Positions 3,496 through 64,000 are shown, numbered from the stretch's first letter. The stretch: DNA of 64,000 nucleotides from Thermodesulfobacteriota bacterium (GCA_965203965.1 CBDBDR010000017.1:608001-672000); one strand, 5' to 3'. Numbers and translations are program-made. The notes: generated by a model not told the origin, from the letters alone.

Positions 3496-6078
3496 TCATC
3501 CTTTAATAAAAACTAACTTCCCCTCATTGTTCAAAAAAACATACACGGTATTCCCTTCCTCAAACTCCCCTTTCAACAACTTTGAAGCCAGAGGATCCTG
3601 AATATATTTTTGTATGGTTCTTTTAAGAGGTCTTGCACCATACACCGGATCATAACCAAGTTCTGCAATATATTCATTTACCTCATCTCTAAGCTCTATC
3701 CCGATGTTTTTCTCAGCCAGCCTTTTCCTCAGATGCCCAATTTGTATACTGACTATTTTTACCAACTGCTCTATGGACAGCGGCTTGAAAATTATTGTCT
3801 CATCAATACGGTTTATAAATTCAGGCTTAAATGAACTTCTTAAAACCTCGTTGACTTTTTTAACCATCTTATCTTCATCGGATAAAAATTCCTGAATGTA
3901 GTGACTTCCCAGATTAGAGGTCATTATTATCACCGTGTTCTTGAAATCTACGGTTCTACCCTGTCCATCCGTAAGTCTTCCGTCATCAAGGATCTGTAGC
4001 AATATATTGAAAACGTCATTGTGTGCTTTCTCAATCTCATCAAACAGTATCACGGAATAGGGACGTCTCCTCACGGCTTCGCTCAACTGACCACCCTCTT
4101 CATAACCAACGTATCCGGGAGGTGCACCCATTAACCTTGAAACCGAGTGCTTTTCCATATACTCACTCATATCAACCCTGATCATTGCATGCTCATCATC
4201 AAACATAAACTCTGCAAGTGCCCTTGCAAGTTCGGTTTTACCCACACCCGTCGGGCCAAGAAATACAAATGAACCTATTGGCTTATTTGGATCCGATAAG
4301 CCCGAACGCGATCTCCTCAGTGCATTTGATACCGCCTTAATGGCTTCGGTCTGTCCGATCACTCTCTGGCTGAGTTTGTCCTCCATGTGAACCAGTTTTT
4401 CAACCTCACCTTCTATAAGTTTGGAAACGGGAATGCCAGTCCATTTGGAAACAATTGAAGCAACGTCTTCGGCTTCAACTTCCTCTTTGAGCATCTTTTT
4501 CTCTTTTTGTAGTTCGGAAAGTTTAAGACTGTTATCCTCAATCTCTTTATTCATTTTAGGCAGTTCTCCATAAAGAAATTCCGACGCTTTTGACAGATCT
4601 CCTTCCCGCTGTGCTTTTTCGGCGTTGGTTTTTTGCCGTTCTATCTTTTCTTTGATGCTACGGATGTTTGTTATAAGCTCTTTTTCTCTATGCCAGTGTG
4701 ATTTGAGAGTTCCCGATTCTTCCTTCAAATTCGCTATATTCTCCTCAATGGATTTCAACTTTTCTTTTGCAGCTTTATCCTTCTCTTTTTTTAGCCCTTC
4801 TCTTTCAATTTCCAACTGCAAGATCTTTCGCTCAACTTCATCTATCTCGGTTGGCATTGAGTCAATTTCCATTTTCAGTTTGGCTGCTGCTTCGTCAATA
4901 AGATCAACCGCTTTATCAGGCAGAAATCTCCCGGAGATGTACCTGCTGGAAAGAACACCCGCTGAAATAATTGCTTCATCTTTTATTTTGACACCGTGAT
5001 GAACTTCGTATTTTTCTTTCAATCCACGCAGAATTGATATTGTGTCTTCCACTGAAGGTTCATTAACGAACACCTGTTGAAATCTCCTCTCAAGTGCAGC
5101 GTCTTTTTCAATATATTTTCTATACTCGTCAAGAGTGGTTGCACCAATACAGTGCAATTCTCCCCTTGCAAGAGCAGGTTTTAGCATATTTGAAGCATCA
5201 AGCGAGCCTTCGGCACCGCCGGCACCAACGACAGTGTGAATTTCATCAATAAAAAGAACTATCTCACCCTGCGACTCAGATACTTCCTTCAACACGGCTT
5301 TCAGCCTTTCTTCAAACTGACCTCTGTATTTTGCACCCGCAAGTAGTGAACCAATATCCAGTGCTATCAGCCTTTTATTTTTTAATCCATCGGGAACATC
5401 CCCTTTTACAATACGCTGGGCAAGCCCCTCAACAATGGCAGTTTTTCCCACACCTGGCTCCCCTATCAAGACAGGATTGTTCTTTGTTCTTCTCAAAATT
5501 ACCTGTATAACCCTTCTTATTTCATCATCTCTTCCTATAACGGGGTCAATTTTCCCCTGATCCACAAGTTCTGTAAAATCCTTGCCGTATTTTTTAAGAG
5601 ACTGGAAAGTATCTTCTGGTGATTGTGTGTCCACTTTTTGATCCCCCCTGATCTTTTTTAGCACTTCCATTATCGCAGTTTTGGTAATGCCTCTCTTTTT
5701 AAGCCCGTCTTTCAATCCCGCCGGTGCATTTTCTACAATACCAATAAGCAGATGTTCGGTGCTTATATACTCATCATTGAAGGCTTTGGCTTCTTTATCG
5801 GCAGTATTGAAACATTGATTAAGCTCCCTACTTGCATAAACCTGATCGGATCCAGATTCAACCTTAGGAAGTTTTTTAATTTCATCTGATGCCAACTGCC
5901 TGATTTCCTGTATCTTTGATCCAATCCGTTCAATGATCTCCGTGGGAATTCCTGATTCTTCCAATAAAGCAACCATTAGATGAGAAACATCAACTATCTG
6001 GTTCTTTCCGTCTATTGCTATGTTTTGTGCATTAGCAACCGCTTCCTGTGCTCTTATCGTCAGTTTGTCAAACTTCAT
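3496..6078 (-). CDS. clpB: ATP-dependent chaperone ClpB
   Basis: Two AAA+ modules ([16 protein letters not shown]), coiled-coil middle domain, 860 aa. Confidence 0.98.
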
Positions 6079-7253: not shown

Positions 7254-7730
7254 TTACTCTATATCAATAATTATAAACTCCCTTATTCCCCCGGGAGTTC
7301 TTGTTTGCGTGTTGTCATTTACTTCTTTACCGATCAAAGACCTTCCAAGTGGAGACGTAATTGAGATCTTTCCCTCATTTGGATCCGATTCATCTGCACC
7401 TACAAGTTGATACTTTTTTCTCTCACCCGTATCAACGTCCTCAATTGTTACTGTCAGACCGAATACAACCCTGTCCCTGCTTGTTATGCTCTTGGGATCA
7501 ATTACCTCCGCCATCACCAGTTTCGCTTCAAGCTCCCTTATCCTACCTTCAACAAAAGACTGCTTATCCTTTGCCGTTTCATACTCTGCATTTTCAGAAA
7601 GGTCTCCCAGCGATCTGGCATATTCAATTGCTTTGATGACTTCGTGTCTATCAACAGTTTTTAGTTTTTGCAGCTCACTCTGCAAGCTCTTATAACCTTC
7701 CGGTGTCATTGGCACTCTACTTACCGACAT
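7254..7730 (-). CDS. greA: Transcription elongation factor GreA
   Basis: GDLSENAEY and ISITSPLG motifs; GGAGG just upstream of ATG 7730. Confidence 0.96.
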
Positions 7731-10700
7731 TTTTTCCTCCATTAGTCGTTTTATAATCTTGTATTGCTTTTACATTAAGTCCTTTCTTAATTAAAACCTC
7801 TATGGCTCCCACACCTGCCTTTGCTCCCGGTATGGTCGTAAAGTAAGGCACGTTATACATAAGGGCAGTTCTCCTGATAGACAAGGATTGTGCCACTTCC
7901 TTTTCTCCAAAAGTCGTATTTACCACAAGTTGAATGCCACCGTTCTTCAAATGATCGGTAACGTCAGGCCTGCCCTCCATCACCTTGTTTATCCTTTTGT
8001 TCTCTATACCGTTATCTGCAAGAAAAGCTGAGGTTCCCTTCGTGCACATCAGCTTAAAACCCAACTCATGCAGTTTTTTTGATACGTTCAACACCACCCT
8101 ATTTTTATCCTCATCCTTAACGCTTATGAACGCTGAACCACTGCGGGGGAGAGTATTTCCAGCCGCAACCTGAGATTTCAAAAAAGCCCCGTTCAGATCA
8201 ACGTCAATTCCCATGACCTCTCCCGTAGACATCATTTCGGGACCCAGCATTGGATCAACTCCCGAAAACCTTACAAAAGGGAACACCGACTCCTTGACGG
8301 AATAATGAGTAGGAATGATCTCTTCAGTATATCCGAGTTCCTTCAATGATTTGCCGGTCATGACCTTTGTTCCGAGATTTGCAAGCGGAACACCTATTGC
8401 CTTACTAATGAACGGTATTGTCCTGCTTGCCCTTGGATTTGCTTCAATCAAGTAAATGGTGCTGTCTTTTATTGCAAATTGAACATTGACAAGCCCCTTG
8501 ACTCCGAGTGCAAGAGCAAGTTCTTTGGTTTGTCTCCTTATCTCTTCAAGGATATTATCCTTAATTGAGAACGGTGGTAATACCATTGCACTATCCCCCG
8601 AATGTATGCCTGCCTCCTCAATATGCTCCAATATTCCCCCTATAACAACGGTCTCACCATCTGAGATCGCATCCACGTCAACTTCCCTTGCATCTTTTAG
8701 AAATTCATCAATAAGAACTGGATGGTCTTGCGATACCTGAACTGCCTCTTTTATATATCTTCCGAGAGCATCCACGCCATACACAACTTCCATTGCCCTG
8801 CCTCCAAGCACGTAAGAAGGTCTCACTATGACGGGGTAGCCGATCCTTTTCGCTATCCTTACGGCTTCGTCTTTACTCCTTGCGATCCCATTCTTAGGCT
8901 GCTTCAGATTTAATTTATGAACTACTTCTCTGAATCTCTCACGATCCTCAGCAAGATCAATACTGTCAGGGGATGTGCCTATAATTTTTATTCCATTTTT
9001 TTCAAGAGGGATTGCAAGTTTCAGAGGAGTTTGCCCTCCAAGTTGCACTATCACACCATCGGGTTTTTCCCTATTCAGTATCTCAAGCGTATCTTCAAGT
9101 GTAAGCGGTTCAAAATATAGACGGTCGGACGTATCATAATCCGTGCTTACGGTCTCTGGATTGCAATTCACCATTATTGACTCATAACCCTCTTCCTTTA
9201 AGGCAAAAGACGCGTGAACACAGCAGTAATCAAACTCTATGCCCTGCCCTATGCGATTTGGGCCACATCCGAGTATGACAACGCTTTTTTTCTCAGTTGG
9301 TGTTGCTTCGCTCTCGGATTCATACGTGGAGTAAAGATAGGGAGTGTATGCCTCAAATTCAGCGGCGCAAGTATCTACCATTTTATAAGCCGGATCAATA
9401 CCAAAATACTTTCTTTTTTCTCTTATTTCATCTTCATTACAACCGAGACAATCAGCCAGATAAATATCCGAATACCCAATCTGCTTGGCTTCTTTCAAAA
9501 TATCCCCGTTCAAACCCTCTATTTTTATCCCCTTTATTTCTGACTCAAAATCAACGATCTGCTTTATATTGTATAAAAACCAGCGATCTACACCGCTCAA
9601 ACCGTATATCTCTTCAAGATCCACACCACGTCTGAAGGCATCAGCTATGAACCATAATCTCTCGGCATTGGGAACTCTCAACTTCTCCTTTATCTTATCA
9701 AGGTCTGAACATTTGGTTTCAAGCCCGTAAGAATCAATCTCAAGAGACCTTATGGCTTTCTGAAGTGATTCCTTGAATGTTCTTCCAATTGACATAACCT
9801 CTCCAACCGACTTCATCATGGTGGTTAGGGTTGGGTCGGCTTGAGGAAATTTTTCAAATGCAAATCTTGGTATCTTTACCACGACGTAGTCAATCGTTGG
9901 TTCAAACGAAGCTGGAGTGTATTTTGTAATATCATTTGATATTTCATCAAGCGTATAACCAACCGCGAGCTTTGCCGCTATCTTAGCGATCGGAAAACCG
10001 GTGGCTTTTGAGGCAAGTGCAGAACTCCGAGACACTCTCGGATTCATCTCAATTATGACCATATCACCGTTTTCAGGGTTAATGGCAAATTGAATGTTGG
10101 AACCCCCTGTGTCAACTCCTATTTCTCTTATTATTTTTATTGAAGCGTCTCTTAACTCTTGATATTCCTTGTCGCTAAGGGTCTGGGTGGGTGCAACGGT
10201 TATGCTGTCTCCGGTATGAACACCCATAGGGGAAAAATTTTCAATTGAGCATATAATCACAACGTTGTCTTTACAGTCCCGCATTACTTCATATTCAAAT
10301 TCCTTCCATCCTATTACGGACTGCTCAACCAGAATTTCTGATACTGGACTCATATCCAAACCCGATTTTGCCTGCTCTGCAAACTCTTCTTTGTTGTATG
10401 CAATGCTCCCTCCAGTACCTCCCAGAGTGAATGAGGGTCTTATTATGATCGGATAGCCCACTTCCTCTGATATTTTCCAAGCCTCATCCATATTGTGGGC
10501 AATACCACTTCTTGGAACTTTCAAACCTATCCTCAGCATCGCGTCCTTAAAAAGCTCTCTGTTCTCGGCTTTCTTTATAGCCTCTAACTTTGCACCGATA
10601 AGTTCAACGTTGTTTTTTGCCAGCACACCGGACTCTGCCAACTCAACGGCAAGGTTCAAAGCAGTCTGACCCCCAAGAGTAGGCAAAAGTGCATCGGGCT

Positions 10701-10944
10701 TTTCAGTTTCTATGATCTTTTCAACTACTTCCGACACAATAGGCTCAACGTAAGTTCTATCCGCAAGGCTCGGGTCGGTCATTATTGTGGCTGGATTGCT
10801 GTTTACAAGTATTACCTTGTAGCCCTCGTCTTTAAGAGCCTTGCACGCTTGAACTCCCGAGTAGTCAAATTCACATGCTTGACCTATCACAATTGGTCCG
10901 GAACCAATGATCAATATACTGTTTAAATCTTCTCTTTTTGGCAT
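7717..10944 (-). CDS. carB: Carbamoyl-phosphate synthase large subunit
   Basis: MPKREDL...[17 protein letters not shown], duplicated ATP-grasp, MGS domain. Confidence 0.98.
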
Positions 10945-11231
10945 ATCTGTAAATTATTTCAAGAGATGGAAAGGAAACGAGAAACTCCTAAATCATAAGA
11001 TTTATACCTCAAAACGGGTATTGTGGCAACTATATAATGCAGATACTATGGAGTAGCTTTGCAAGCACCTTTGCTTTTCAAAACAAAAATAAATCATTCC
11101 CCTTCCCCTTCTGGTTATGAATCCCTGCTTTCGTATGAATGATGATATATGGGTTGATGTGATGACAAGCCTCATAATAGCCGTTACGTATAACTTTATG
11201 AAACTTGCCATTAAGTTTATTATTCACCTTT

Positions 11232-13133
<1,902 letters not shown>

Positions 13134-17958: not shown

Positions 17959-17986
17959 ATTGGATCAATAAAAACTTTTTTATTAC

Positions 17987-18060
17987 CACGCCCGGAGGGA
18001 GTCGAACCCCCAACCTTGTGATCCGTAATCACACGCTCTATCCAGTTGAGCTACGGGCGC
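17987..18060 (-). tRNA. tRNA-Arg(ACG), CCA not encoded
   Basis: GCGCCCGTAGCTCAACTGGATAGAGCG-TGTGA-TTACGGA-TCACA-AGGTTGGGGGTTCGACTCCCTCCGGGCGTG cloverleaf. Confidence 0.97.
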
Positions 18061-18146
18061 AATTAAAAGTGGAAACTTTGTAATTATTACTATATCAATA
18101 TAATCTTCAAATTATCCTTAAATAGTTTTTAATCTTTTAACAAAAC

Positions 18147-18175
18147 TTGACAAAGTTAAAAAAATCAGTCATATT
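18147..18175 (+). promoter_or_regulatory. Sigma70-type promoter directly upstream of the octamer array
   Basis: TTGACA (18147-18152), 17-bp spacer, CATATT (18170-18175). Confidence 0.6.
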
Positions 18176-18177
18176 GT

Positions 18178-18517
18178 GAGCCAAAGAGCCAAAGAGCCAA
18201 AGAGCCAAAGAGCCAAAGAGCCAAAGAGCCAAAGAGCCAAAGAGCCAAAGAGCCAAAGAGCCAAAGAGCCAAAGAGCCAAAGAGCCAAAGAGCCAAAGAG
18301 CCAAAGAGCCAAAGAGCCAAAGAGCCAAAGAGCCAAAGAGCCAAAGAGCCAAAGAGCCAAAGAGCCAAAGAGCCAAAGAGCCAAAGAGCCAAAGAGCCAA
18401 AGAGCCAAAGAGCCAAAGAGCCAAAGAGCCAAAGAGCCAAAGAGCCAAAGAGCCAAAGAGCCAAAGAGCCAAAGAGCCAAAGAGCCAAAGAGCCAAAGAG
18501 CCAAAGAGCCAAAGAGC
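18178..18517. repeat. Perfect tandem repeat (GAGCCAAA)x42 plus GAGC
   Basis: 336 bp from 18178 to 18513 equals 42 octamers, followed by a half unit. Confidence 0.98.
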
Positions 18518-18545
18518 GGACGGAGTTCCCTTTTTGGCTCTTTTT
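18503..18545 (+). terminator. Intrinsic-terminator-like hairpin whose 5' arm is the repeat unit
   Basis: AAAGAGCCAAAGAG...CTTTTTGGCTCTTT stem ending in a T-run. Confidence 0.55.
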
Positions 18546-18580
18546 ATATAAAGGTTTATTTAAAAAATGGAGGAACTAAA

Positions 18581-18949
18581 ATGGAATTTGAAAGAATAGA
18601 TAATCCCACTGATGTAACTCACTCTAAAATAATAACTGCAAGTTTGAATGATAAAAAATTAAATAAGACAAACTGGAATAAATTAAGATCAAAATTGACC
18701 AAACTTGCGATACAGACTGGCTCTTCATTGGAAGAACTTAATGAAACAATTCCAGGTCTTAGTATTGTACAAGGAATAAAGAAACCATATGGTTGGCAAT
18801 ACAACACAAATGGCAATTTTTCTCTTAATGGTGTAAATGCAAAAACATGTTTAAAGAATATCAGAAAACTTGCGGAAATTTGCAACGCAAAAGTGTATAT
18901 AGAGTTTTCTTACAAAGAAGGGACAAACAAAGGGAAAATACAGATATAA
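18581..18949 (+). CDS. Hypothetical basic protein, 122 aa
   Basis: GGAGG SD at 18569-18573 before ATG 18581 (MEFERIDNPTDVTHSK...). Confidence 0.7.
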   Translation: MEFERIDNPTDVTHSKIITASLNDKKLNKTNWNKLRSKLTKLAIQTGSSLEELNETIPGLSIVQGIKKPYGWQYNTNGNFSLNGVNAKTCLKNIRKLAEICNAKVYIEFSYKEGTNKGKIQI

Positions 18950-18970
18950 CATTGAGATTGTTATGAAAAC

Positions 18971-19067
18971 CTAAACCTCATGAACCTTCTCAAAATAATA
19001 CTTTTTCCAATCATCAAGAATTTTGTACTGCACTTTCTGATTTCCTCCGAAACAGCACCGACATTTC
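18971..19067 (-). pseudogene. Downstream fragment of disrupted restriction endonuclease (MjaI-family-like)
   Basis: Reads NVGAVSEEIRKCSTK then, after a frameshift, LDDWKKYYFEKVH; continues the fragment at 23115-23170. Family assignment is from recalled sequence similarity. Confidence 0.6.
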
Positions 19068-19193
19068 ATTCCTGATGAAAAAAGAGAGGCTTTACGTGGT
19101 TGGTTTACGGCGATCAAGTTTTTTGACATGGAAAGAACCAAGATCTCATCTGGATCCGAGAGGTTGTTTATTATAGCAACAAAAAAGATTTGA
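19068..19193 (+). pseudogene. Copied 3' end of the SAM-dependent methyltransferase gene found at 63678-64000
   Basis: Encodes ALRGWFTAIKFFDMERTKISSGSERLFIIATKKI-stop, near-identical to the reverse complement of ~63678-63800. Confidence 0.9.
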
Positions 19194-19276
19194 AATTGAC
19201 TCATTCATAACTCTTTGTAATTGTTAAAGGAAAAGTTTACTCTGTTCAGCAGAAGAAAAAAATCATCAAAAGCAAG

Positions 19277-22048
19277 ATGACCACCATTAAGATCATTAAT
19301 TTTTTGCTGTTAATTCTCATTTTGTGCGGTTACGCAAAAGCTCAAGAACTGCCTACAGCAAAGTTGTCAAAGTTGCTTTTATCGGCGTCAGCAGAAGGTC
19401 AAACCGAAACTGTAATAGCTCTAATTGCCAAAGGAGCTGACGTCAATACTAAAACTAATAACGGCATTACGCCTCTACACACGGCTGCATTGGGAGGTCA
19501 CACTGCAACTGTAAAAGCCCTAATAGCCGCAGGGGTTGACATTGAAGCTAAAGATAATAACGGCATTACGCCTCTACACGCGGCTGCAGGGGAAGATCAC
19601 ACTGAAATTGTAAAAGCCCTAATAGCCGCAGGGGTTGACATTGAAGCTAAAGATAATAACGGCATTACGCCTCTACACGCGGCTGCATGGAAAGGTCACA
19701 CTGAAATTGTAAAAGCCTTAATAGCCGCAGGGGCCAACCTCAATACTAAAAGTAAAGACGTTGTTACGCCTCTACACGCGGCTGCATTGAGAGGTCACAC
19801 TGCAACTGTAAAAGCCCTAATAAACAAAGGGGTTGACATTGAAGCTAAAGATAATAACGGCATTACGCCTCTAAACTTTGCTGCATTGATAGGTCACACT
19901 GCAACTGTAAAAGCCCTAATAGCTGCTGGGGCTAACCTCAATACTAAAAGTAAAGACGTTGTTACGCCTCTACACGCGGCTGCAGGGAAAGGTCACACTG
20001 AAATTGTAAAAGCCCTAATAGCCGCAGGGGCTAACATTGAAGCTAAAGTTAATAACGGCAATACGCCTCTACACTTAGCTGCATTGGAAGGTCACACTGA
20101 AATTGTAAAAGCCCTAATAAACAAAGGGGCTAACATTGAAGCTAAAGATAATAACGGCAATACGCCTCTACAAGCGGCTGCAGGGGAAAGTCACACTGAA
20201 ATTGTAAAAGCCCTAATAAACAAAGGGGTTGACATTGAAGCTAAAGATAATAACGGCAATACGCCTCTACACCGGGCTGCATTCGAAGGTCGCACTGAAA
20301 TTGTAAAAGCCCTAATAGCCGCAGGGGTTAACATTGAAGCTAAAGATAATAACGGCAATACGCCTCTACACTGGGCTGCATTGGAAGGTCACACTGAAAT
20401 TGTAAAAGCCCTAATAAACAAAGGGGTTGACATTGAAGCTAAAAATAAAGACGGCGTTACGCCTCTACACATAGCTGCAGCTAAAGGTCACACTGAAATT
20501 GTAAAAGCCCTAATAAACAAAGGGGTTGACATTGAAGCTAAAGCTAATAACGGCAATACGCCTCTACACCGGGCTGCATTCGAAGGTCGCACTGAAATTG
20601 TAAAAGCCCTAATAGCCGCAGGGGTTAACATTGAAGCTAAAGATAATAACGGCAATACGCCTCTACACGCGGCTGCATTGGAAGGTCACACTGAAATTGT
20701 AAAAGCCCTAATAAACAAAGGGGTTGACATTGAAGCTAAAAATAAAGACGGCGTTACGCCTCTACACATAGCTGCAGCTAAAGGTCACACTGAAATTGTA
20801 AAAGCCCTAATAAACAAAGGGGTTGACATTGAAGCTAAAGCTAAAGACGGACTTACACCCCTACACTGGGTTGCATGGCACGGTCACACCGAAACTGTAA
20901 AAGCCTTGATTGCCGCCGGGGCTAATGTCAATACTAAAGATAAAGACGGCAATACACCTCTACGCTTGGCTGCAAAAAACGGTCACACTGCGACTGTAAA
21001 AGTCCTGAAAAACAGCAATATGTCTATACACATGGCTGCAGGGAAAGGTCGTACTGCAATTGTAAAAACTCTAATTGCCAAAGGGGCTGACGTCAATACT
21101 AAAGATAAAGACGGCAATACGCCTCTACACATGGCTGCAGGGAAAGGTCGTACTGCAACTGTAAAAACTCTAATTGCCAAAGGGGCTGACGTCAATACTA
21201 AAGATAAAGATGGCAATACCTCTCTACACTTGGCTGTAAGGAAAAGTCAAACCGAAACCGTAAAAATCCTGATCGCCAAAGGAGCTAACGTCAATACCAA
21301 AGATAAAGACGGCAATACGCCTTTACACTTGGCTGTAAGGAGAGGTCATACTGCAACTGTAAAAGCTCTAATTGCTAAAGGGGCTGACATTAATACTAAA
21401 GATAAATACGGTGATACATCTCTACACTTGGCTGTAAGGCGCGGTCGTGCTGTAACCGTAAAAGCCCTAATAGCCGTTGGGGCTAACGTCAATACTAAAG
21501 ATAAAGATGGCAATACCTCTCTACACTTGGCTGCACAGTACGGTCAAACCGGGGTCGTGAAAGCCTTAATAGCCGCCGGGGCTAACGTCAATATTAAAAA
21601 TAAAAACGGTCGTACGCCTCTACGCTTAGCTGCACATTACAGTCGTACTAAAACCGTAGAAGTCCTAAAAGAAGCCGATCTAAACTGGGCAGTACGGCGT
21701 GGTCATACTGCAACCATAAAAGCCCTAAGTCATGCTGGTGTTAAAGTCAATAATAAAGATAAAGATGGTAGTACACCCCTACATTTTGCTGCACAGTACG
21801 GTCGTACTGCAACCGCAAAAGCCCTAATTGCCGCCGGAGCCTATGTCAATACTAAAGATAAAAAAGGCAATACACCTCTACACTTGGCTGCACAGTACGG
21901 TCATACTGCAACCGTAAAAGTCCTGATCGCTGCCGGGGCTAAAGTCAATACTAAAAATAAAGACGGCAGTATGCCTCTAGACTTTGCTGCACATTACGGT
22001 CAAACTGAAATAGTAAAAATTCTGAAAGAAACTGGCGGAATACGATAA
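19277..22048 (+). CDS. Secreted ankyrin-repeat protein (copy A, roughly 26 repeats)
   Basis: Sec signal MTTIKIINFLLLILILCGYAKA, 33-aa TPLHxAAxxGH repeats with 99-bp DNA periodicity. Confidence 0.95.
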   Translation: MTTIKIINFLLLILILCGYAKAQELPTAKLSKLLLSASAEGQTETVIALIAKGADVNTKTNNGITPLHTAALGGHTATVKALIAAGVDIEAKDNNGITPLHAAAGEDHTEIVKALIAAGVDIEAKDNNGITPLHAAAWKGHTEIVKALIAAGANLNTKSKDVVTPLHAAALRGHTATVKALINKGVDIEAKDNNGITPLNFAALIGHTATVKALIAAGANLNTKSKDVVTPLHAAAGKGHTEIVKALIAAGANIEAKVNNGNTPLHLAALEGHTEIVKALINKGANIEAKDNNGNTPLQAAAGESHTEIVKALINKGVDIEAKDNNGNTPLHRAAFEGRTEIVKALIAAGVNIEAKDNNGNTPLHWAALEGHTEIVKALINKGVDIEAKNKDGVTPLHIAAAKGHTEIVKALINKGVDIEAKANNGNTPLHRAAFEGRTEIVKALIAAGVNIEAKDNNGNTPLHAAALEGHTEIVKALINKGVDIEAKNKDGVTPLHIAAAKGHTEIVKALINKGVDIEAKAKDGLTPLHWVAWHGHTETVKALIAAGANVNTKDKDGNTPLRLAAKNGHTATVKVLKNSNMSIHMAAGKGRTAIVKTLIAKGADVNTKDKDGNTPLHMAAGKGRTATVKTLIAKGADVNTKDKDGNTSLHLAVRKSQTETVKILIAKGANVNTKDKDGNTPLHLAVRRGHTATVKALIAKGADINTKDKYGDTSLHLAVRRGRAVTVKALIAVGANVNTKDKDGNTSLHLAAQYGQTGVVKALIAAGANVNIKNKNGRTPLRLAAHYSRTKTVEVLKEADLNWAVRRGHTATIKALSHAGVKVNNKDKDGSTPLHFAAQYGRTATAKALIAAGAYVNTKDKKGNTPLHLAAQYGHTATVKVLIAAGAKVNTKNKDGSMPLDFAAHYGQTEIVKILKETGGIR

Positions 22049-22340
22049 GCAGTTAATGCTTGAAACATCATAAAGATTAAACAGCAAAAACGCTCTTCTT
22101 AATCCTTAAACGGATCAAATTCATTTTTTCCAGCACTCATAATAACAACAAGTGGTTTTAATGTATGGAATATTCTAATAGAGTATTCTTACGTTCATTT
22201 AGAACATCTGAATCCGAGAGGTTGTTTATTATTGCAACAAAAAAGATTTGAAATTGACTCATTCATAACTCTTTGTAATTTTTAAAGGAAAAGTTTACCA
22301 TATTCAGCAAAAGGAAAAATCATCAAAAAGAAGGAGACTA
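22046..22340 (+). repeat. Inter-ankyrin spacer: conserved downstream flank plus conserved upstream flank
   Basis: Similar over its length to the reverse complement of ~61170-61460; first part also at 22985-23087 and 58822-58954, second part also at 19147-19276 and 63595-63725. Confidence 0.9.
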
Positions 22341-22342
22341 CA

Positions 22343-22987
22343 ATGAAAACTCAAAAACCATCTACTGATGTTCTTGCAGACCAAAACCCGGAAAAAGCAA
22401 AGTTGTCAAAGTTGCTTTTATCGGTGTCAAAAGAAGGTCAGACTGAAACCATAAAAACCCTAATAGCCAAAGGGGCTAATGTTAATACTGAAGATGAATA
22501 CGGCTTTACGCCCCTACATTTGGCTGCATCGAAGGATCATACTGCAACCGTAAAAGCCTTGATCACTGCTGGAGCTAACGTCAATGCTAATAAAAATAAT
22601 AAAGGTTATACGCCTCTACACTGGGCTGCACAGGAGGGTCACACCAAAACGGTAGAAGTCTTAATAGCCGCCGGGTCTAACATTGAAGCTAAAGATAAAT
22701 CCGGTCATACGCCTCTACACTGGGCTGCAGCGCAAGGTCAAACTGCAATGGTAGAAGACTTAATAGCCGCCGGGTCTAACATTGAAGCTAAAGCTAATGA
22801 CGGTTCTACACCTCTGCATTTGGCTGCAGATCACCGTCACACTACAACTGTAAAAGTCCTAATAGGAGACGCCAAAGCTGATGTCAATACTAAAGATAGA
22901 GACGGCAATACGCCTCTATACTGGGCTGAAACGAAAGGTTACACTGAAATCGTAAAAGTCCTGAAAGAAGCTGGGGGAGTACGATAA
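22343..22987 (+). CDS. Ankyrin-repeat protein (copy B, about 6 repeats)
   Basis: TPLHxAA repeats; AAGGAG SD; shares AKLSKLLLS N-cap with copy A. Confidence 0.93.
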   Translation: MKTQKPSTDVLADQNPEKAKLSKLLLSVSKEGQTETIKTLIAKGANVNTEDEYGFTPLHLAASKDHTATVKALITAGANVNANKNNKGYTPLHWAAQEGHTKTVEVLIAAGSNIEAKDKSGHTPLHWAAAQGQTAMVEDLIAAGSNIEAKANDGSTPLHLAADHRHTTTVKVLIGDAKADVNTKDRDGNTPLYWAETKGYTEIVKVLKEAGGVR

Positions 22988-23114
22988 GCAGTTAATGCTT
23001 GAAACATCATGAAGATTAAACAGCAAAAACGCTCTTCTTAATCCTTATATGGATAGAATTCATTTTCTCCAGCCATAACAACACCAATAAGCCCACGTTG
23101 AAACTACTAAACAG

Positions 23115-23170
23115 TTAAAATTCAACTGAAAACGATTCATTACACTGTTTAAAATCCATTCTTTAGCCAT
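23115..23170 (-). pseudogene. N-terminal fragment of restriction endonuclease (MjaI-family-like)
   Basis: ATG at 23170 overlaps the MTase 3' end and reads MAKEWILNSVMNRFQLNF before running into ankyrin-flank DNA. Confidence 0.65.
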
Positions 23171-24467
23171 TTATTACTGCCTCTCTTTCATAATTCAAAA
23201 ATCTTTTATAGTGCTTATATTCAAAACTTCTATCTGTTTCAGCAAAGCCATTTTTGATCAAATGTGCATTAATAAATGTTTTATTCTTTAAATACAGATA
23301 ACAAAGCAGATTGTTCTGTTCATCGTATTTCACTTCGTCAAATCTTAAAAATACTTTCTGACCTTTGGTTTTTTCTTTTAAGAACTTTTTCGCGGCAGAT
23401 AATTTCTCCTTGATTGGTTTAACGCCAATGAGCTTGACCTTCAAGCCGTCACTTAAAACTACTTCGTTCGGGGAATGAACCTCTTTAATCAAAAAATATT
23501 CATCTCTTTTACCGTTTGAACCATTGTCAATTCTTGAGCCAAATTGTAATTTTCTTGGATCAACCTCTTTACTTATTTTTACAGTATCTTTGAAAATATA
23601 GGGCAAACTACTTATATCCTTTTTGTAGTCTTTAACAACGTTGCTTGCACTAGTAAAATTAATTAAAGATCCTTCAAAAAGTTCTGGTTTGGATACGGCA
23701 AGTTTTTCCTTGATGATCGGCATAAATTCATCGTTTATTTCATATCCAATGGAATTTCTTTTTAAGTTAATTGCACTTAAACAGGTTGTCCCACTACCCA
23801 GGAAAGGATCCAATACAGTATCATCAACATAAGAAAACATTTTTATTAAACGGTTTGGTAGCTCCACGGGAAACATCGCAAGGTGTTTATCCTGTTTCTC
23901 ACCCGAAAAATTCCAATGACCGGAAAAATATTTATTCCATTCTTCTTTTGTGAGCTTAGACTTTTCCTTAATATGTTTGCTAACTTTCTTTGGTCTACCG
24001 GGTTTCTTAAACAACAATATAAATTCATAATCAATCTTTAAAATACCGTTCCTTGGATAAGGGTACGAACCCATTATGGTCGCCCCACCAGTAGTATTGG
24101 ATGTAATGATCTTTTGCCATATGATCGCCCCCATATAATCAAATCCAATAGTTTCACAAAATTTAATTACTTCAGTCCTTATGGGAATAACCTTATACCG
24201 TCTATAATAAACAGACCTAGCAAATTGGTCGCCAATATTTACACAGAGACGACATCCGTTATCCAGCACACGGTAACACTCGTTCCAGACAAGATTCAAA
24301 TTGTTGATGTAATCTTCATAAGAATCATCAAAACCTATCTGATCACTGTCCCCATAATCTTTAAGCTGCCAATACGGTGGAGATGTAACTACAATATGAA
24401 CCGAAGCGTCCTCAATCAAGTCCATATTCCTAGAATCTCCTATGACGATTTGATGATCGGTTTTCAT
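23163..24467 (-). CDS. Beta-class N4/N6 DNA methyltransferase fused to a C-terminal SNase-like domain
   Basis: VTSPPY (motif IV) precedes VLDPFLGSGTT (motif I); C-terminus VKLIGV...LLCYLYL...FINAHLIKNGFA; start reassigned to ATG 24467. Confidence 0.9.
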   Translation of the reverse strand: MKTDHQIVIGDSRNMDLIEDASVHIVVTSPPYWQLKDYGDSDQIGFDDSYEDYINNLNLVWNECYRVLDNGCRLCVNIGDQFARSVYYRRYKVIPIRTEVIKFCETIGFDYMGAIIWQKIITSNTTGGATIMGSYPYPRNGILKIDYEFILLFKKPGRPKKVSKHIKEKSKLTKEEWNKYFSGHWNFSGEKQDKHLAMFPVELPNRLIKMFSYVDDTVLDPFLGSGTTCLSAINLKRNSIGYEINDEFMPIIKEKLAVSKPELFEGSLINFTSASNVVKDYKKDISSLPYIFKDTVKISKEVDPRKLQFGSRIDNGSNGKRDEYFLIKEVHSPNEVVLSDGLKVKLIGVKPIKEKLSAAKKFLKEKTKGQKVFLRFDEVKYDEQNNLLCYLYLKNKTFINAHLIKNGFAETDRSFEYKHYKRFLNYEREAVING

Positions 24468-24712
24468 AAAAACAAAAAGGGAAAATCTATTTAACCATGA
24501 ATTCAAAGCCCAAGCACAACAAGATGTGCTAACTATGAAAATACCCAATTTGCACCTTAATTCCAAAACGTCCACGGGAACAATCCTGATACCAAACCAG
24601 CTTGATTTTCTATCCTTACACCAAATCACGGCAGGTTGAACTATCAAATTATTTACAGAGCTAAACCAACCCATATAATAGTGAGCTATATTTATAGATA
24701 ACAGAGGAAAAA

Positions 24713-58457: not shown

Positions 58458-58757
58458 TTACTCGCCTTCAAGCAAATATTTATCGTAAACTTCTTTTGCC
58501 CAGAACAACTCAGTGCCGGACGATACCAATGCCACTTCCATTATAGCCTCTGCTATTTCCTCTTTACTGAAACCCGCTGCCATAGCTTTTTTTATCCTTG
58601 AACCGGTACAGTGGGGACACCTACCTTGAATAGCAACGGCAAGTGCTATCATCGCTTTTGATTTCTGGTCTAATTTGCTTTCACCTTCACAGGAATTGTA
58701 AAACTCCCACCACCCTTTTGCCATATCTGGTGCTTTCTCTTCAAACCATAGTGCCAT
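58458..58757 (-). CDS. Carboxymuconolactone decarboxylase / AhpD-like protein
   Basis: LDQKSKAMIALAVA...CPHC...EEIAEAI. Confidence 0.88.
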   Translation of the reverse strand: MALWFEEKAPDMAKGWWEFYNSCEGESKLDQKSKAMIALAVAIQGRCPHCTGSRIKKAMAAGFSKEEIAEAIMEVALVSSGTELFWAKEVYDKYLLEGE

Positions 58758-58951
58758 TTGATAAATCCTCCTTAATTGAAATAAATTTTATGATTAGCAG
58801 ACATTATACCACTAAATTGCACCAAAATGTGCTTCATACATTGAAAGCCATTTGGTGTTGTTATGGCTGGAAAAAATGAATTCTATCCATATAAGGATTA
58901 AGAAGATCGTTTTTGCTGTTTAATCTTTATAATGTTTCAAGCATTAACTGC

Positions 58952-61015
58952 TTACCATATTCCGCCAGCTTCTCTTAGGACTCTTACGGTTTCGGTATAA
59001 CCGTACTGTGCAGCCAAGCGTAGAGGCGTTTTGCCGTCTTTATTTTTAGTATTGACTTTAGCCCCGGCAGCAATCAAGGCTTTTACAGTTGCAGTTTGAC
59101 CGTACTGTGCAGCCAAGTGTAGAGGCGTAGAACCGTCATTAGCTTTAGCTTCAATGTTAGCCCCGGCAGCAATCAAGGCTTTTACAGTTGCAGTTTGACC
59201 GTACTGTGCAGCCAAGTGTAGAGATGTAGAACCGTCATTAGCTTTAGCTTCAGTGTTAGCCCCGGCAGCAATCAAGGCTTTTACAGTTGCAGTTTGACCG
59301 AGAAATGCAGCATCATGTAGAAGTGTAAAACCGTATTTACCTTTAATCCCAACAGCTTTCAGGATTTCTACTACTGTAGTGTGACGGTACCGCGCAGCCA
59401 AGTGTATAGGCATATTGCCGTCTTTATCTTTAGTACTAACGTCAGCCCCGGCAGCCATTATGGTTTTTACGATTTCGGTATGACCTTTCCTCGCAGCCAA
59501 ATGTATAGGCATATCGCCGTCTTTATCTTTAGTACTAACGTCAGCCCCAGCAGCTATCAGGGCTTTTACGATTTCGGTGTAACCCCTATTTACATGCCAA
59601 TGCAGAGGTATATTGCCGTCTTTATCTTTAGTCTTGACATCAGTTCCGGCGGCTATTAGAGCTCTTACGTTTTCGGTGCGACCCCAAAATGCAGCCCAGT
59701 ATAAAGGAGTATTACCGGATTTATCTTTAGCTTCAATGTTAGCCCCAGCAGCTATTAAAACTTTTACCGTTTCGGTGCGACCCTTATCTGCAGCCACGTG
59801 TAGAGGCGTACTGCCGTCTTTATCTCTAGTGTTGACGTTAGCCCCGGCAGCTATTAGGACTTTCACCGTTTCGGTGCGACCCTTATCTGCAGCCCGGTAT
59901 AAAGGCGTACCACCGTTTTTATCTTTAGCTTCAATGTTAGCCCCGGCGGCTATTAGGACTTTCACCGTTTCGGTGTGACCTTTTCCCACAGCCACGTGTA
60001 GAGGCGTACTGCCGTCATTAGCATCTTTAGCTTTAATATTGGCCCCAGCAGCTATTAAAACTTTTACCGTTTCGGTGCGACCCTTATCTGCAGCCACGTG
60101 TAGAGGCGTACTGCCGTCTTTATCTCTAGTGTTGACGTTAGCCCCGGCGGATAGTAAGGCTTTTACGGTTGTAACATTGTAACCGTACTGTGCAGCCAAG
60201 CGTAGAGGCGTACTGCCGTCTTTATCTCTAGTATCGACATCAGCCCCGGCAGATAGTAGGGCTTTTACGGTTGTAACGTTGTAACCGTACTGTACAGCCA
60301 AGCGCAGAGGTGTATCGCCGGATTTATTTTTAGTACCGACATCAGCCCCGGCAGATAGTAGGACTTTTGCGGTTGTAGTGTTGTAACCGTACTGTGCAGC
60401 CACGTGTAGAGGCGTATTGCCGTCTTTATCTTTGGCATTGACATAAGCCCCAGCGGATAGTAGGGTTTTTACGGTCGCGGTATGACCATACTGTGCTGCA
60501 AAATGTAGAGGTGTACTGTAGTCTTTATCTCTAATATTGACTTTAACACCAGCATAACTTAGAGTTTTTATGGTTGCAGTATGGCCACGCTGTACAGCCA
60601 AATGTAGATCGGATTCTTTCAGGACTTTTATGGTTGTAGTTTGACCACAATGTGCAGCCAAGCACAGAGGTGTATCGCCGGATTTATTTTTAGTATTGAC
60701 TTTAGCCCCGGCGGATAGTAGAACTTTTATGGTTGCAGTACGACCGTACTTTACAGCCCAGTGTAGAGACGTATTACCTTTTTCTTTATCTTTAGTATTG
60801 ACGTTAGCCCCCGCGGCTATTAAGGCTTTTACGATTTCTGTGTAACCTTTCCCCGCAGCCAAGTGTAGAGGTGTATCACCGTAGTATTTAGCTTTAGCTT
60901 CAATGTTAGACCCTGTGGCTATTAGGGTTTTTACGGTCTCGGTGTGACCTTCCCGTACAGCCAAGTGTAGAGGTGTAAGGCGGCCTTTATTATCTTTAGT
61001 TTCAATGTTAGGCAT
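58952..61015 (-). CDS. Ankyrin-repeat protein (copy C, roughly 20 repeats)
   Basis: TPLH repeats; start placed at ATG 61015 (GGAG upstream), homologous to the copy D start. Confidence 0.9.
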   Translation of the reverse strand: MPNIETKDNKGRLTPLHLAVREGHTETVKTLIATGSNIEAKAKYYGDTPLHLAAGKGYTEIVKALIAAGANVNTKDKEKGNTSLHWAVKYGRTATIKVLLSAGAKVNTKNKSGDTPLCLAAHCGQTTTIKVLKESDLHLAVQRGHTATIKTLSYAGVKVNIRDKDYSTPLHFAAQYGHTATVKTLLSAGAYVNAKDKDGNTPLHVAAQYGYNTTTAKVLLSAGADVGTKNKSGDTPLRLAVQYGYNVTTVKALLSAGADVDTRDKDGSTPLRLAAQYGYNVTTVKALLSAGANVNTRDKDGSTPLHVAADKGRTETVKVLIAAGANIKAKDANDGSTPLHVAVGKGHTETVKVLIAAGANIEAKDKNGGTPLYRAADKGRTETVKVLIAAGANVNTRDKDGSTPLHVAADKGRTETVKVLIAAGANIEAKDKSGNTPLYWAAFWGRTENVRALIAAGTDVKTKDKDGNIPLHWHVNRGYTEIVKALIAAGADVSTKDKDGDMPIHLAARKGHTEIVKTIMAAGADVSTKDKDGNMPIHLAARYRHTTVVEILKAVGIKGKYGFTLLHDAAFLGQTATVKALIAAGANTEAKANDGSTSLHLAAQYGQTATVKALIAAGANIEAKANDGSTPLHLAAQYGQTATVKALIAAGAKVNTKNKDGKTPLRLAAQYGYTETVRVLREAGGIW

Positions 61016-61457
61016 TATATAATCTCCAATTAACATAATATAAAGGCATAAAACCATCATTACCTTTAGCTTCAATGTTAACCCCAGCGGCTATTGAAAC
61101 TTTTACAGTTCTGGTGTGACCCTTCCCTGCAGCCCAGTTTAATAGCAAAATTTGAATGATCTTAATAGTAGTTACCTTCTTTTTGATGATTTTACTTCCG
61201 CTGAACAGAGTAAACTTTCCCTTCAACAATTACAAAGAGTTATAAATAAATCAGCCTCAAATCTTTTTTGTTGCAACAATAAACAACCTCTCGGATACAG
61301 ATGTTCTAAATTAACGTAAGAATACTATTAAAATATTTCACACACTAAAACCACTTGGTGTTGTCATAGCTGGAGAAAATGAGTTTGATCCGTATAAGAA
61401 TCAAGAAGAGGGTTTTTGCTGTTTAATCTTTATGATGTTCCAAGTATTAACTGCTCA

Positions 61458-63434
61458 TCATATTCCGCCAGCTTCTTCCAGGATTTTTACGGTTTCGGTG
61501 TGACTGTGAAATACAGCCGCGCGTAGAGGCGTATTGCCGTATTTATCTTTAGTATTGACATTAGCCCCAGCAGCGAATATTAGGACTTTTGCGGTTGTAG
61601 TGTGACCTTTCTCTGCAGCCGCGTGTAGAGGCGTATTGCCGGATTTACCTTTAGCTTCAATGTTAGCCCCGGCAGCTATTAGGACTTTTGCGGTTGTAGT
61701 GTGACCTTTCTCTGCAGCCGCGTGTAGAGGCGTATTGCCGGATTTATCTTTAATATTGACATCAGCTTCGGCGGCTATTAGGACTTTTGCGGTTGTAGTG
61801 TGACCTTTCTCTGCAGCCGCGTGTAGAGGCGTATTGCCGGATTTATCTTTAATATTGACATCAGCTTCGGCGGCTATTAGGACTTTTGCGGTTGTAGTGT
61901 GACCTTTCTCTACAGCCGCGTGTAGAGGCGTATTGCCGTATTTATCTTTAGTATTGACATCAGCTTCGGCGGCTATTAGAACTTTTACGGTTTCTGTGTA
62001 CCCCCCCACTGCAGCCATGAGTAGAGGCGTACCAACGAATTCATTTTTAGTATTGACGTTTGCTCCAGCCACTATCAGGGCCTTTACGGTTTCAGTGCGA
62101 CCCCCAAATGCAGCCATGCGTAGAGGTGTATCACCGGATTTACTTTTAGCTTCAATATTGGCCCCGGCGGCTATTAGAACTTTCACCGTTTCAGTACCCC
62201 CAAATACAGCCCAGTATAGAGGTGTATAACCGGATTTATCTTTAGTATTGACATCAGCCCCGGCGGCTATTAGGACTTTCACCGTTTCAGTGCGACCCCC
62301 AAATGCAGCCATGCGTAGAGGTGTATCACCGGATTTACTTTTAGCTTCAATATTGTCCCCGGCAGCTATTAGAACTTTTACGATTTCAGTGTAACCTTCT
62401 CCCGCAGCCCGGTGTAGAGGTGTAAAGCCTTTATTAGCATCTTTAGCTTCAATGTTAGCCCCAGCGGCTATTAAGGCTTTTACGGTTACAATACGACCTT
62501 TCCGTACAGCCAAGTGTAGAGGCGTATTGCCGTCTTTATCTTTGGCATTGACATCAGCTCCGGCGGCTATTAGGATTTTTACGGTTGTAGTGTGACCTTC
62601 CCCAGCAGCCACGTGTAGAGGTGTAAAGCCTTCATTGGCATCTTTAGCTTCAATGTTATTAGCCCCACCAGCAGCTATTAAAACTTTTACGGTTGTAACG
62701 TTGTAACCGTACTGTACAGCCAAGCGTAGAGGTGTATTACCGGATTTATTTTTAGTATTGACTTTAGCCCCGGCAGCTATTAAAACTTCTACAGTTGTAG
62801 TGTTGTAACCGTACTGTGCTGCCAAGTGTAGAGGCGTATTGCCGTCTTTATCTTTGGCATTGATATAAGCCCCAGCGGATAGCAGAGTTTTTACGGTTGC
62901 GGTATGACCGTACTGTGCTGCAAAATGTAGGGGTGTACTGTAGTCTTTATCTCTAATATTAACTTTAACACCAGCATAACTTAGAGTTTTTATGGTTGCG
63001 GTATGACCACGCCGTACAGCCAAATGTAGATCGACTTCTTTCAGGACTTTTATGGTTGTAGTGTGACCGTAATGTGCAGCCAAGTGTAGAGGCGTATTGC
63101 CGTTTTTATTTTTAGTATTGACTTTAGCCCCGGCGGATAGTAAGGCTTTTGCGGTTGCAGTACGACCATATTGTGCAGCCCAGTGTAGAGACGTATTGCC
63201 TTTTTCTTTATCTTTAGTATTGACTTTAACCCCCGCGGCTATTAAGGCTTTTACGATTTCTGTGTAACCTTCCCCAGCAGCCATGTGTAGAGGCTTATCA
63301 CCGTAGTATTTAGCTTTAGCTTCAATGTTAGACCCTGTGGCTATCAAGGATTTTACGGTCTCAGTGTGACCTTCCCCAGCAGCCACGTGTAGAGGTGTAA
63401 TGCCTTTATTATCTTTAGCTTCAATTTTAGTCAT
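61458..63434 (-). CDS. Ankyrin-repeat protein (copy D, roughly 19 repeats)
   Basis: TPLH repeats; N-terminal ~250 aa highly similar to copy C. Confidence 0.92.
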   Translation of the reverse strand: MTKIEAKDNKGITPLHVAAGEGHTETVKSLIATGSNIEAKAKYYGDKPLHMAAGEGYTEIVKALIAAGVKVNTKDKEKGNTSLHWAAQYGRTATAKALLSAGAKVNTKNKNGNTPLHLAAHYGHTTTIKVLKEVDLHLAVRRGHTATIKTLSYAGVKVNIRDKDYSTPLHFAAQYGHTATVKTLLSAGAYINAKDKDGNTPLHLAAQYGYNTTTVEVLIAAGAKVNTKNKSGNTPLRLAVQYGYNVTTVKVLIAAGGANNIEAKDANEGFTPLHVAAGEGHTTTVKILIAAGADVNAKDKDGNTPLHLAVRKGRIVTVKALIAAGANIEAKDANKGFTPLHRAAGEGYTEIVKVLIAAGDNIEAKSKSGDTPLRMAAFGGRTETVKVLIAAGADVNTKDKSGYTPLYWAVFGGTETVKVLIAAGANIEAKSKSGDTPLRMAAFGGRTETVKALIVAGANVNTKNEFVGTPLLMAAVGGYTETVKVLIAAEADVNTKDKYGNTPLHAAVEKGHTTTAKVLIAAEADVNIKDKSGNTPLHAAAEKGHTTTAKVLIAAEADVNIKDKSGNTPLHAAAEKGHTTTAKVLIAAGANIEAKGKSGNTPLHAAAEKGHTTTAKVLIFAAGANVNTKDKYGNTPLRAAVFHSHTETVKILEEAGGI

Positions 63435-63677
63435 TATATAATCCCTAATTAAATGTAATATAAAGGCGTAAAACCGTCATTACCTTTAGCCTCAATGTTA
63501 GTCCCGGCAGCTATTAGAGTTTTTACAGTTACAGTTTGACCTTTCCCTGCAGTTCAGTGTAACAGCAAAAATTGAATGGTCTTAATGGTAGTCATCTTCT
63601 TTTTGATGATTTTTCCCTCTGCTGAACAGAGTAAACTTTTCCTTCAACAATTACAAAGAGTTATGAACAAGTCAATT

Positions 63678-64000
63678 TCAAATCTTTTTTGTTGCAACAA
63701 TAAACAATCTCTCGGATCCAGAAGAGATCTTGGTTCTTTCCATGTCAAAAAACTTGATCGCCGTAAACCAACCACGTAGAGCATCTCTTATTTTCTGCAA
63801 AGAAAAAGCCCTTTCATAAAGCGTCTCTTCATGTTCCAGATATTGGTTATTGTCCAAATGCTCAAATATCCTCAGATGCCATTCATATATTGAACTGGAA
63901 TGAGAGACGTTCGTTATCAACACGTTCCTTTCAAATTCATGAACTAAAGGGGATGATCTTGAAAGTTTCTTCAACTTGTATTCCGTATTTGTATCAAATA
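63678..64000 (-). CDS. 3' part of probable class I SAM-dependent methyltransferase (runs off window end)
   Basis: Frame open to the window edge: FDTNTEYKLKK...EHEETLYERAFS...SERLFIVATKKI, resembling the C-terminal half of this family. Confidence 0.65.
   Translation of the reverse strand, partial: FDTNTEYKLKKLSRSSPLVHEFERNVLITNVSHSSSIYEWHLRIFEHLDNNQYLEHEETLYERAFSLQKIRDALRGWFTAIKFFDMERTKISSGSERLFIVATKKI

Follow-up and report, generated by a model that had tools for sequence, protein, structure and literature searches.

A 4-kb insert bearing two ankyrin genes, probably a dispersed segmental duplication, splits an MjaI-type endonuclease gene in a Thermodesulfobacteriota bacterium

What is the origin of a 4-kb block of DNA that carries two ankyrin genes and sits inside a restriction endonuclease gene with no transposase beside it? 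We addressed this question in a 64,000-nt stretch of the genome of a Thermodesulfobacteriota bacterium (GCA_965203965.1, CBDBDR010000017.1:608001-672000; hereafter the window, with positions counted from its first letter). In the window, an RE_MjaI-family endonuclease gene on the minus strand, directly downstream of an intact gene for a DNA methyltransferase fused to an SNase domain (MTase-SNase), is interrupted after codon 18/19 by 4,044 nt that hold the two ankyrin genes (19071-23114). A first-pass annotation of this DNA had proposed that effector cassettes spread here by an unspecified copy-and-paste mechanism. We find instead that the insert is most probably (with a probability of roughly 0.75) a dispersed segmental duplication of chromosomal DNA with arbitrary end points, formed via illegitimate recombination, and not a mobile cassette: its flanks are leftovers of two ordinary genes, here called X and rtcB, it bears the scar of a tandem duplication, and it has no ends of its own.

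The two pieces that border the insert belong to one gene, as the first-pass annotation had suggested. An ATG at 23170 overlaps the methylase stop codon and opens a frame of 18 sensible codons followed by noise. Intact homologues of 210 aa start at the same overlapping position after an MTase-SNase gene, and their N termini match both window pieces in succession. Two of these intact homologues match PF09568 (RE_MjaI) with an E-value of 4e-48 over the full model. Further, a tblastn search of the 1.99-Mb genome with a homologous endonuclease (L014) placed residues 1-18 at 23170-23115(-), residues 21-35 at 19065-19021(-) and residues 35-48 at 19024-18983(-), as adjacent parts of one protein family should align, whereas residues 49-210 had no match anywhere in the genome. 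A hidden Markov model (HMM) search of the genome with RE_MjaI returned no match, and the fragments themselves, which still align with homologue residues 1-18 and 21-48, are too short to have produced a Pfam match or a genome HMM match; Pfam, PADLOC and PHROGs assigned no family to the open reading frames (ORFs) of the fragments. In the family score of its intact homologues and in their position directly after a methylase gene, the split gene resembles the MjaI restriction-modification (R-M) system, whose recognition site is presumably CTAG. It differs in that only about 48 of 210 codons survive, with no full-length frame of ∼210 aa left, and in that the methylase carries a C-terminal SNase domain.

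The piece to the right of the insert in gene order has decayed further: codon 20 is a stop, 1 nt has been deleted near 19024/19025, and homology gives out near 18978, ∼28 nt away from the end of a converging ORF. The endonuclease gene is both split and truncated. The earlier statement that the insert replaced a defence nuclease holds insofar as the insert interrupts the gene, but is overstated, because the loss of codons 49-210 is a separate event and the endonuclease has also been lost or truncated in related genomes.

An empty site, which the first-pass annotation had suggested seeking in relatives, is present in G001, a complete genome of the same family, in which the pair is uninterrupted (L089; endonuclease 9750-10385, methylase 10390-11703). 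The two window pieces are contiguous there by blastn, with 84% identity over 89 nt, 76% identity over 1,366 nt and a gap of 4 nt between the alignments. At the level of single bases, the left piece ends in TTTTAA at 23115, and the other edge can be read in two ways. If AAT at 19070-19068 derives from the endonuclease (reading A), the insert spans 19071-23114, no target base was lost, one A was duplicated and codon 20 became a stop; if the right piece begins at 19067 (reading B), 2 nt of target were lost and the left filler is 10 nt long. Either way, the target changed by 0-2 nt relative to G001. The position of the insertion between the two pieces stands as first annotated, but its left edge is revised to 19071, as the bases at 19070-19068 may be endonuclease, and the right piece is now seen to be frameshifted and truncated as well. 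The 27 nt of unexplained filler noted earlier at the right junction (23088-23114) are unique, with no second copy in the genome at up to 4 mismatches. We also considered, and rejected, a tandem-duplication or inversion origin of the split, because the pieces are ordered and oriented as a simple insertion would leave them and fit together to the base. Adjoining the G001 endonuclease gene is a gene for a 257-aa protein (L089 8606-9379) with a PADLOC match to REase_II (E 2.2e-09) and no Pfam family, which may encode a second nuclease of that module.

Repeats abound in the region, with 99-nt units and three paralogous pairs of ankyrin genes, and the assembly contains an unplaced ankyrin contig. 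The interruption could therefore conceivably be an artefact, a chimeric join brought about by ankyrin repeats in an endonuclease gene that was never broken. We find this barely credible. Both junctions lie in unique sequence outside the repeats, and a misjoin would not yield endonuclease pieces that abut to the base when compared with G001. Further, the junctions were checked against Logan contigs of four runs from two studies over 18700-23400 (contigs drop rare variants, and one of the runs may be the assembly's own source sample; some of the runs are labelled sponge metagenome and others have a coded organism name). The left junction was bridged by error-free contigs with at least 31 nt on each side in three of the four runs (X1, X2 and X6) and the right junction by error-free contigs in two (X1 and X6), and in run X3 a variant contig crosses the 23087/23088 boundary only. 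No empty-site joint was found among the joints listed in these four runs, a result that cannot show its absence because rare variants are dropped.

The content of the insert points to its source. As shown in Table 1, the insert consists of ankA and ankB with a composite intergenic region and two flanks, and its homology to the second ankyrin locus of the window runs from 19078 (equivalent to 63793) through 23087 (equivalent to 58852). Identity between the insert and the 58.8-63.8 kb locus is 92.5% over the first 213 nt (63793-63582), 85% over the 308-nt intergenic region and 96% over the last 103 nt (58852-58954). The left flank is made of the tail of X and the 83-nt 5' untranslated region (UTR) of the ankyrin gene, and the right flank of a 50-nt UTR and the tail of rtcB. 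The first-pass annotation was correct that the insert begins with the copied tail of the gene at 63.7 kb, which we identify as the last 116 nt of X. Consistent with a dispersed segmental duplication, homology to the donor runs on into non-functional pieces of the donor's neighbours (116 nt of X and ∼16 codons of rtcB).

Gene X encodes a 238-aa class-I S-adenosylmethionine (SAM) methyltransferase (Pfam Methyltransf_25 and others). It was matched in 7 of 61 genomes searched, and because its homologues in five other genomes, from several genera, are full-length (aligning over residues 1-236/237 of 238), the tail is native to X. The donor locus sits between intact X (from 63678 upward) and an ahpD-like CMD gene (58458-58757; CMD Pfam match). 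The same neighbours occur in G001, in which an RtcB-family gene (NCBIfam E 2.4e-27, short of the curated cut-off) lies 23 nt beyond X and converges on it, with the ahpD-like CMD gene next in line. Residues 364-398 of the G001 RtcB protein match the window at 61297-61401 (80% identity) and at 22102-22211; when translated, the opposite strand of each of the five ankyrin 3' flanks gives the RtcB C terminus; and no rtcB match was found in the genome beyond these tail remnants. As the X and rtcB tails stand in their native syntenic context only at 58.8-63.8 kb, a locus of that type is the source, and the earlier proposal of this donor is upheld by the synteny with G001.

The arrangement of the tails also records how the gene pairs came about. 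The genome holds six paralogous ankyrin genes in three pairs, and the intergenic region of each pair has the order rtcB tail (∼110 nt), then X tail (47 nt); in the insert, this region (22049-22342) has blastn matches to 19147-19290 and 61162-61463 and a tblastn match to G001 RtcB residues 364-398. This order is circularly permuted, as it should be at the joint of a tandem duplication.

Could the direction of copying have been the reverse, with the 19-23 kb copy as the original, or could the whole island have arrived from a sibling strain with the insert already aboard? The methylase-endonuclease module lies in a different neighbourhood in each of five carrier genomes, and so behaves as a mobile module, and the whole island is absent in a related genome, G002, both of which would fit such a history. 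The native setting of the two tails at 58.8-63.8 kb alone, however, argues against a reversed direction, and had the DNA come from a sibling strain that has the same donor locus, the place of the event would differ but not its nature. We regard either variant as improbable and retain copying from a locus of the 58.8-63.8 kb type.

As the first-pass annotation had noted, the insert lacks the marks of a mobile element. End-to-end alignment of its termini for terminal inverted repeats (TIRs) scored 6.5, whereas shuffles averaged 8.0 and reached 12 at most; a target-site duplication (TSD) would be at most 1 nt long relative to the G001 sequence; and none of the 46 ORFs of at least 110 aa in the window has a Pfam match to a transposase or integrase. 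The insertion is like inactivation by an insertion sequence (IS) or transposon in that a discrete block of DNA breaks a gene with almost no loss of target, but differs from it in these three respects and in having ends that come from the donor's neighbour genes. Genome-wide, recombinase matches were limited to a weak one to Y1_Tnp (37.7 bits), 14 kb before the window, and two to Phage_integrase, both in Xer-like frames of ∼300 aa far from the window. The Y2_Tnp model had no match in the genome but also none in 14 control genomes, and so says nothing either way. The combination of subterminal hairpins and a Y1 transposase that defines the IS200/IS605 type is not seen here: the folds of the 3' flanks are unremarkable (among the four folded, z-scores of -1.4 to +0.3 are no better than shuffles, and one flank has a z-score of -2.5), and the single Y1_Tnp match is 14 kb off. 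Similarly, there was no sign of an integron cassette, as the 3' flank is a 50-nt UTR with an rtcB tail remnant and the integrases are Xer-like only, although no dedicated attC model was run. A sigma-70 pattern scan, which is a weak test, found no promoter-like site on the ankyrin strand at either X-tail boundary, including upstream of 63793, and terminator-like pattern matches fall inside the ankyrin repeats and are likely spurious. The genome has three RVT_1 matches, all of them on the 38-kb contig C1, which may be a mobile element or a plasmid; a 520-aa frame gives the best of the three (132.7 bits).

These results bear on another explanation, namely that the ankyrin pair forms a distinct mobile unit, non-autonomous but with defined ends, which was moved in trans, for example by a Y1/IS200-IS605-like single-strand transposase, or in an RNA-templated manner via one of the reverse transcriptases (RTs) of the genome. 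What speaks for it is above all a third ankyrin pair, on the unplaced 4.5-kb contig C3. This contig ends at the same X-tail base as the left homology boundary of the insert, such that two dispersed copies begin at one base, and it stops after a final 31-40 nt in which it does not differ from the 63.7-kb locus. The clean entry into the target, the Y1_Tnp and RVT_1 matches and the better conservation of the flanks than of the coding bodies would fit as well. However, both ends are pieces of the ordinary neighbour genes X and rtcB, the internal duplication used another end point in the X tail (47 nt rather than 116 nt), the 3' flanks have no hairpins and the insert no TIR, and the scan upstream of 63793 gave no promoter (again, weakly) to set the start of a transcript. 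The flanks were also found in this genome only, with no match in four other genomes of the same family (one of five) and 0 matches in metagenome contigs (two exact-pattern scans), and the end of C3 may be an assembly break at a shared 40-mer just as it may be a shared element end. Overall, we consider a mobile unit unlikely. Equally doubtful is a form of it in which the left end is fixed at the base 116 nt ahead of the stop of X, common to the insert and C3, and the pair is copied whole and pasted cleanly into unrelated targets, leaving no TSD or TIR, by a trans-acting RT or Y1-type route. If it were true, fixed-end copying would give a symbiont a means, not described before, of multiplying host-interaction genes at the cost of its own defence genes.

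C3 was also considered as a strain allele of the 58.8-63.8 kb locus, a possibility that we rejected because identity above 88% is confined to its first 273 nt and one 100-nt stretch. The C3 pair is an old paralogue. In the first ankyrin gene of both this pair and the donor-type pair, a shared deletion has joined the signal-like segment directly to an ankyrin repeat (63555-63595 and, in C3 (L091), near 4250), and relative to ankA the two are sister copies. These two of the six ankyrin genes look disabled at their 5' ends, each by its own lesion: one has an early stop and the other lacks a start codon.

We return to a dispersed duplication. Because the insert ends inside unrelated neighbour genes, because an earlier duplication used a different end point in X, and because filler is present at both junctions, the insert is best explained as a plain chromosomal chunk. 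Likewise, filler of 7-10 nt and 27 nt, essentially no loss of target and the lack of a TSD, a TIR or a recombinase make illegitimate recombination the most likely route of entry. The first-pass idea of effector cassettes that spread by copy-and-paste is not supported by these observations. Several findings nevertheless weigh against an arbitrary-ended duplication. The coincidence of the C3 end with the left homology boundary of the insert is not what an arbitrary end point predicts. The ankyrin bodies are less than 88% identical between the copies, compared with 92-96% for the flanks, and selection on the flanks or gene conversion is possible. Junction microhomology amounts at best to an imperfect, T-rich 7-mer, which is not significant. 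Finally, Ku was not found in the genome, which makes classical non-homologous end joining unlikely for a paste mechanism that we only infer. The window does contain recA.

On this evidence, a history in four steps can be proposed. In the ancestral order, which the synteny with G001 shows, X converged on the RtcB-family gene, and the ahpD-like gene came next. An ankyrin gene would then have arrived between the converging stop codons of X and rtcB. Tandem duplication of a segment comprising the last 47 nt of X, the ankyrin gene and the last ∼110 nt of rtcB, to which the intergenic scar attests, produced the gene pair, and most of rtcB was deleted later. In the fourth step, for which the content of the copied DNA is the guide, a chunk that begins 116 nt ahead of the stop of X and reaches to within ∼16 codons of the stop of rtcB was copied and pasted, inverted and ∼36 kb away, into codon 19/20 of the RE_MjaI-type gene of a horizontally acquired methylase-endonuclease module, most likely by illegitimate recombination of an end-joining or template-switch type. 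The endonuclease was thereby inactivated and then decayed further, by the stop, the frameshift and the loss of codons 49-210, and the genome gained two extra ankyrin genes. Non-functional copies of gene 3' ends mark the movement of DNA here much as they do in recombination scars of the icd/e14 type. In the latter, integration takes place beside or within a gene whose tail is duplicated, whereas here the cargo took the tails along to a site far away.

We then consider what the event left behind. The methylase has Pfam matches to N6_N4_Mtase (E 1.4e-45) and SNase (E 1.7e-09), is 76% identical to the proteins of G001 and a further related genome, G003, and its translation contains SPPY and FLGSGT, which we take to be the methylase catalytic motifs. 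Compared with G001, the proportion of nonsynonymous differences (pN) is 0.13 and that of synonymous differences (pS) is 0.70, values that span the whole divergence from G001 and not just the time since the endonuclease was lost, and that to this extent tell against the account given here. With the methylase open and conserved and its partner endonuclease broken, the methylase is predicted to be effectively an orphan. The loss is not confined to this genome. Close homologues of the methylase were found in four others among 41 related genomes (G001, G003, G023 and G027), and the endonuclease is intact in G001 only, so that loss with the methylase kept recurs, independently, in three of the four. 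In G027, a 49-aa, internally deleted endonuclease remnant lies beside an open methylase frame; in G003, there is no endonuclease beside an open methylase frame; and in G023, the endonuclease is missing and the 3' part of the methylase is damaged. On a wider scale, we scanned one genome per species for relatives of the methylase and kept the best 80 of 575 loci. With 575 matching stretches (best 80 kept) at 61-75% identity, the MTase-SNase fusion has a very wide distribution over phyla and extends to archaea. In 66 of the 80 loci, at least 750 nt were available downstream of the methylase, and the position directly downstream held a full endonuclease in 37, a partial one in 2 and none in 27. 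Placement of the endonuclease directly downstream of its cognate N6_N4 methylase, as in the window, is thus the layout of 37 of the 66 testable loci and of G001. The pair described here is like orphan methyltransferases from decayed Type II pairs in that an intact, conserved methylase stands beside a destroyed endonuclease, with loss also in relatives. It differs in that the first visible lesion is a 4-kb duplicate of paralogous genes and not an IS, a point mutation or a deletion.

The split gene belongs to an island of 6,578 nt, defined by comparison with G002 (L110), in which 43 nt separate a tRNA-Arg gene from a haem-oxygenase-like gene (G002 positions 2855 and 2899 are the counterparts of window 18064 and 24643, respectively). 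The island lies at the 5' side of tRNA-Arg(ACG), with no integrase among the window ORFs, and starts 3-4 nt upstream of the 5' end of this tRNA gene (window 17986-18064 compared with L110). Because it starts so near the tRNA gene, the ancestral upstream (promoter) region, which in G002 is common to the tRNA gene and the divergent haem-oxygenase-like gene, has been displaced by 6.6 kb. The G001 module lies elsewhere, exactly between carB and thiC. In the window, greA, carB and thiC are adjacent (7254-13094), with 288 nt between carB and thiC. As this site is occupied in G001 and empty here, the module uses different sites in the two genomes.

A perfect 8-nt tandem array (GAGCCAAA x 42.5, 100% matches, 18178-18517) makes up the left part of the island. 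It starts ∼115 nt away from the tRNA-Arg(ACG) 5' end and has no stop in several frames. The array, which may be a recent expansion or an assembly artefact, stands where the N-terminal ∼60 residues of a phrog_24708-like protein would be expected. It is followed by orfY (18581-18949), whose sole match in Pfam, PADLOC and PHROGs is phrog_24708, of unassigned function, over profile positions 62-167 of 185.

Table 1. Coordinates, in the window, of the island, the split endonuclease gene, the parts of the insert and the donor-type locus.
Feature	Position	Strand	Description and basis
Island relative to G002	18065..24642		6,578 nt: 8-nt repeat array, orfY fragment, broken endonuclease with ankyrin insert, methylase
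Endonuclease 3'-ward fragment	18971..19070	-	Codons ~19/20 to 48; tblastn; 84% over 89 nt compared with G001
Left junction filler CCTGATG	19071..19077		7 nt, or 10 nt if the endonuclease piece starts at 19067; alignments
Left end of copied chunk	19078..19276	+	Last 116 nt of gene X (19078-19193, with stop) and 83-nt ank 5' UTR; hmmer, X residues 194-238
ankA	19277..22048	+	923 aa; N-terminal hydrophobic signal-like segment; 99-nt repeats; Pfam Ank families, 24 Ank stretches
Composite intergenic region	22049..22342		~50 nt ankA 3' UTR; rtcB tail (22099/22102-22211, opposite strand); last 47 nt of X (from 22205); ankB 5' UTR
ankB	22343..22987	+	214-aa ankyrin-repeat protein, no visible signal peptide; Pfam Ank_2 E 5e-55
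rtcB 3' remnant, right end of copied chunk	23038..23087	-	Stop and ~16 codons; translation matches C terminus of G001 RtcB-family protein
Right junction filler	23088..23114		27 nt, origin unassigned; homology to other 3' flanks ends at 23087
Endonuclease 5' fragment	23115..23170	-	Codons 1-18 and 2 nt; start overlaps methylase stop; tblastn, G001 DNA alignment ends TTTTAA
N6_N4 DNA methyltransferase with C-terminal SNase	23163..24467	-	434 aa from MKTDHQ start; open frame reaches 24674; Pfam
Ancestral, donor-type locus	58852..63793	-	X tail, ankC, rtcB tail with 47 nt of X tail, ankD, rtcB tail; blastn, G001 synteny

Dispersed segmental duplication by illegitimate recombination is a known process, and it is equally well known that orphan methyltransferases arise by loss of the endonuclease from Type II R-M pairs. 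The locus described here is a real and well-resolved instance of these known processes, neither of which is new in kind, and its value lies in a clean reconstruction and in the correction of the reading as a mobile effector cassette. Ankyrin proteins and R-M systems are both reported as enriched in sponge symbionts in passages of PMC4850255, and richness in both is likewise described in part of PMC8163846. The six ankyrin genes in three pairs, in a window whose DNA occurs in runs labelled sponge metagenome, resemble the expansions of PMC4850255; the passages of that paper on these expansions do not give the origin of the copies, whereas here the path of duplication can be read from the gene-tail scars. 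The locus provides a base-resolved example of the growth of an ankyrin family in a sponge-associated bacterium without a visible mobile element, in which the steps, from a gene between converging genes through tandem duplication to dispersed copies, remain legible in those scars. In addition, it would represent a concrete route, as far as sequence can tell, from a Type II restriction system to an orphan methylase.

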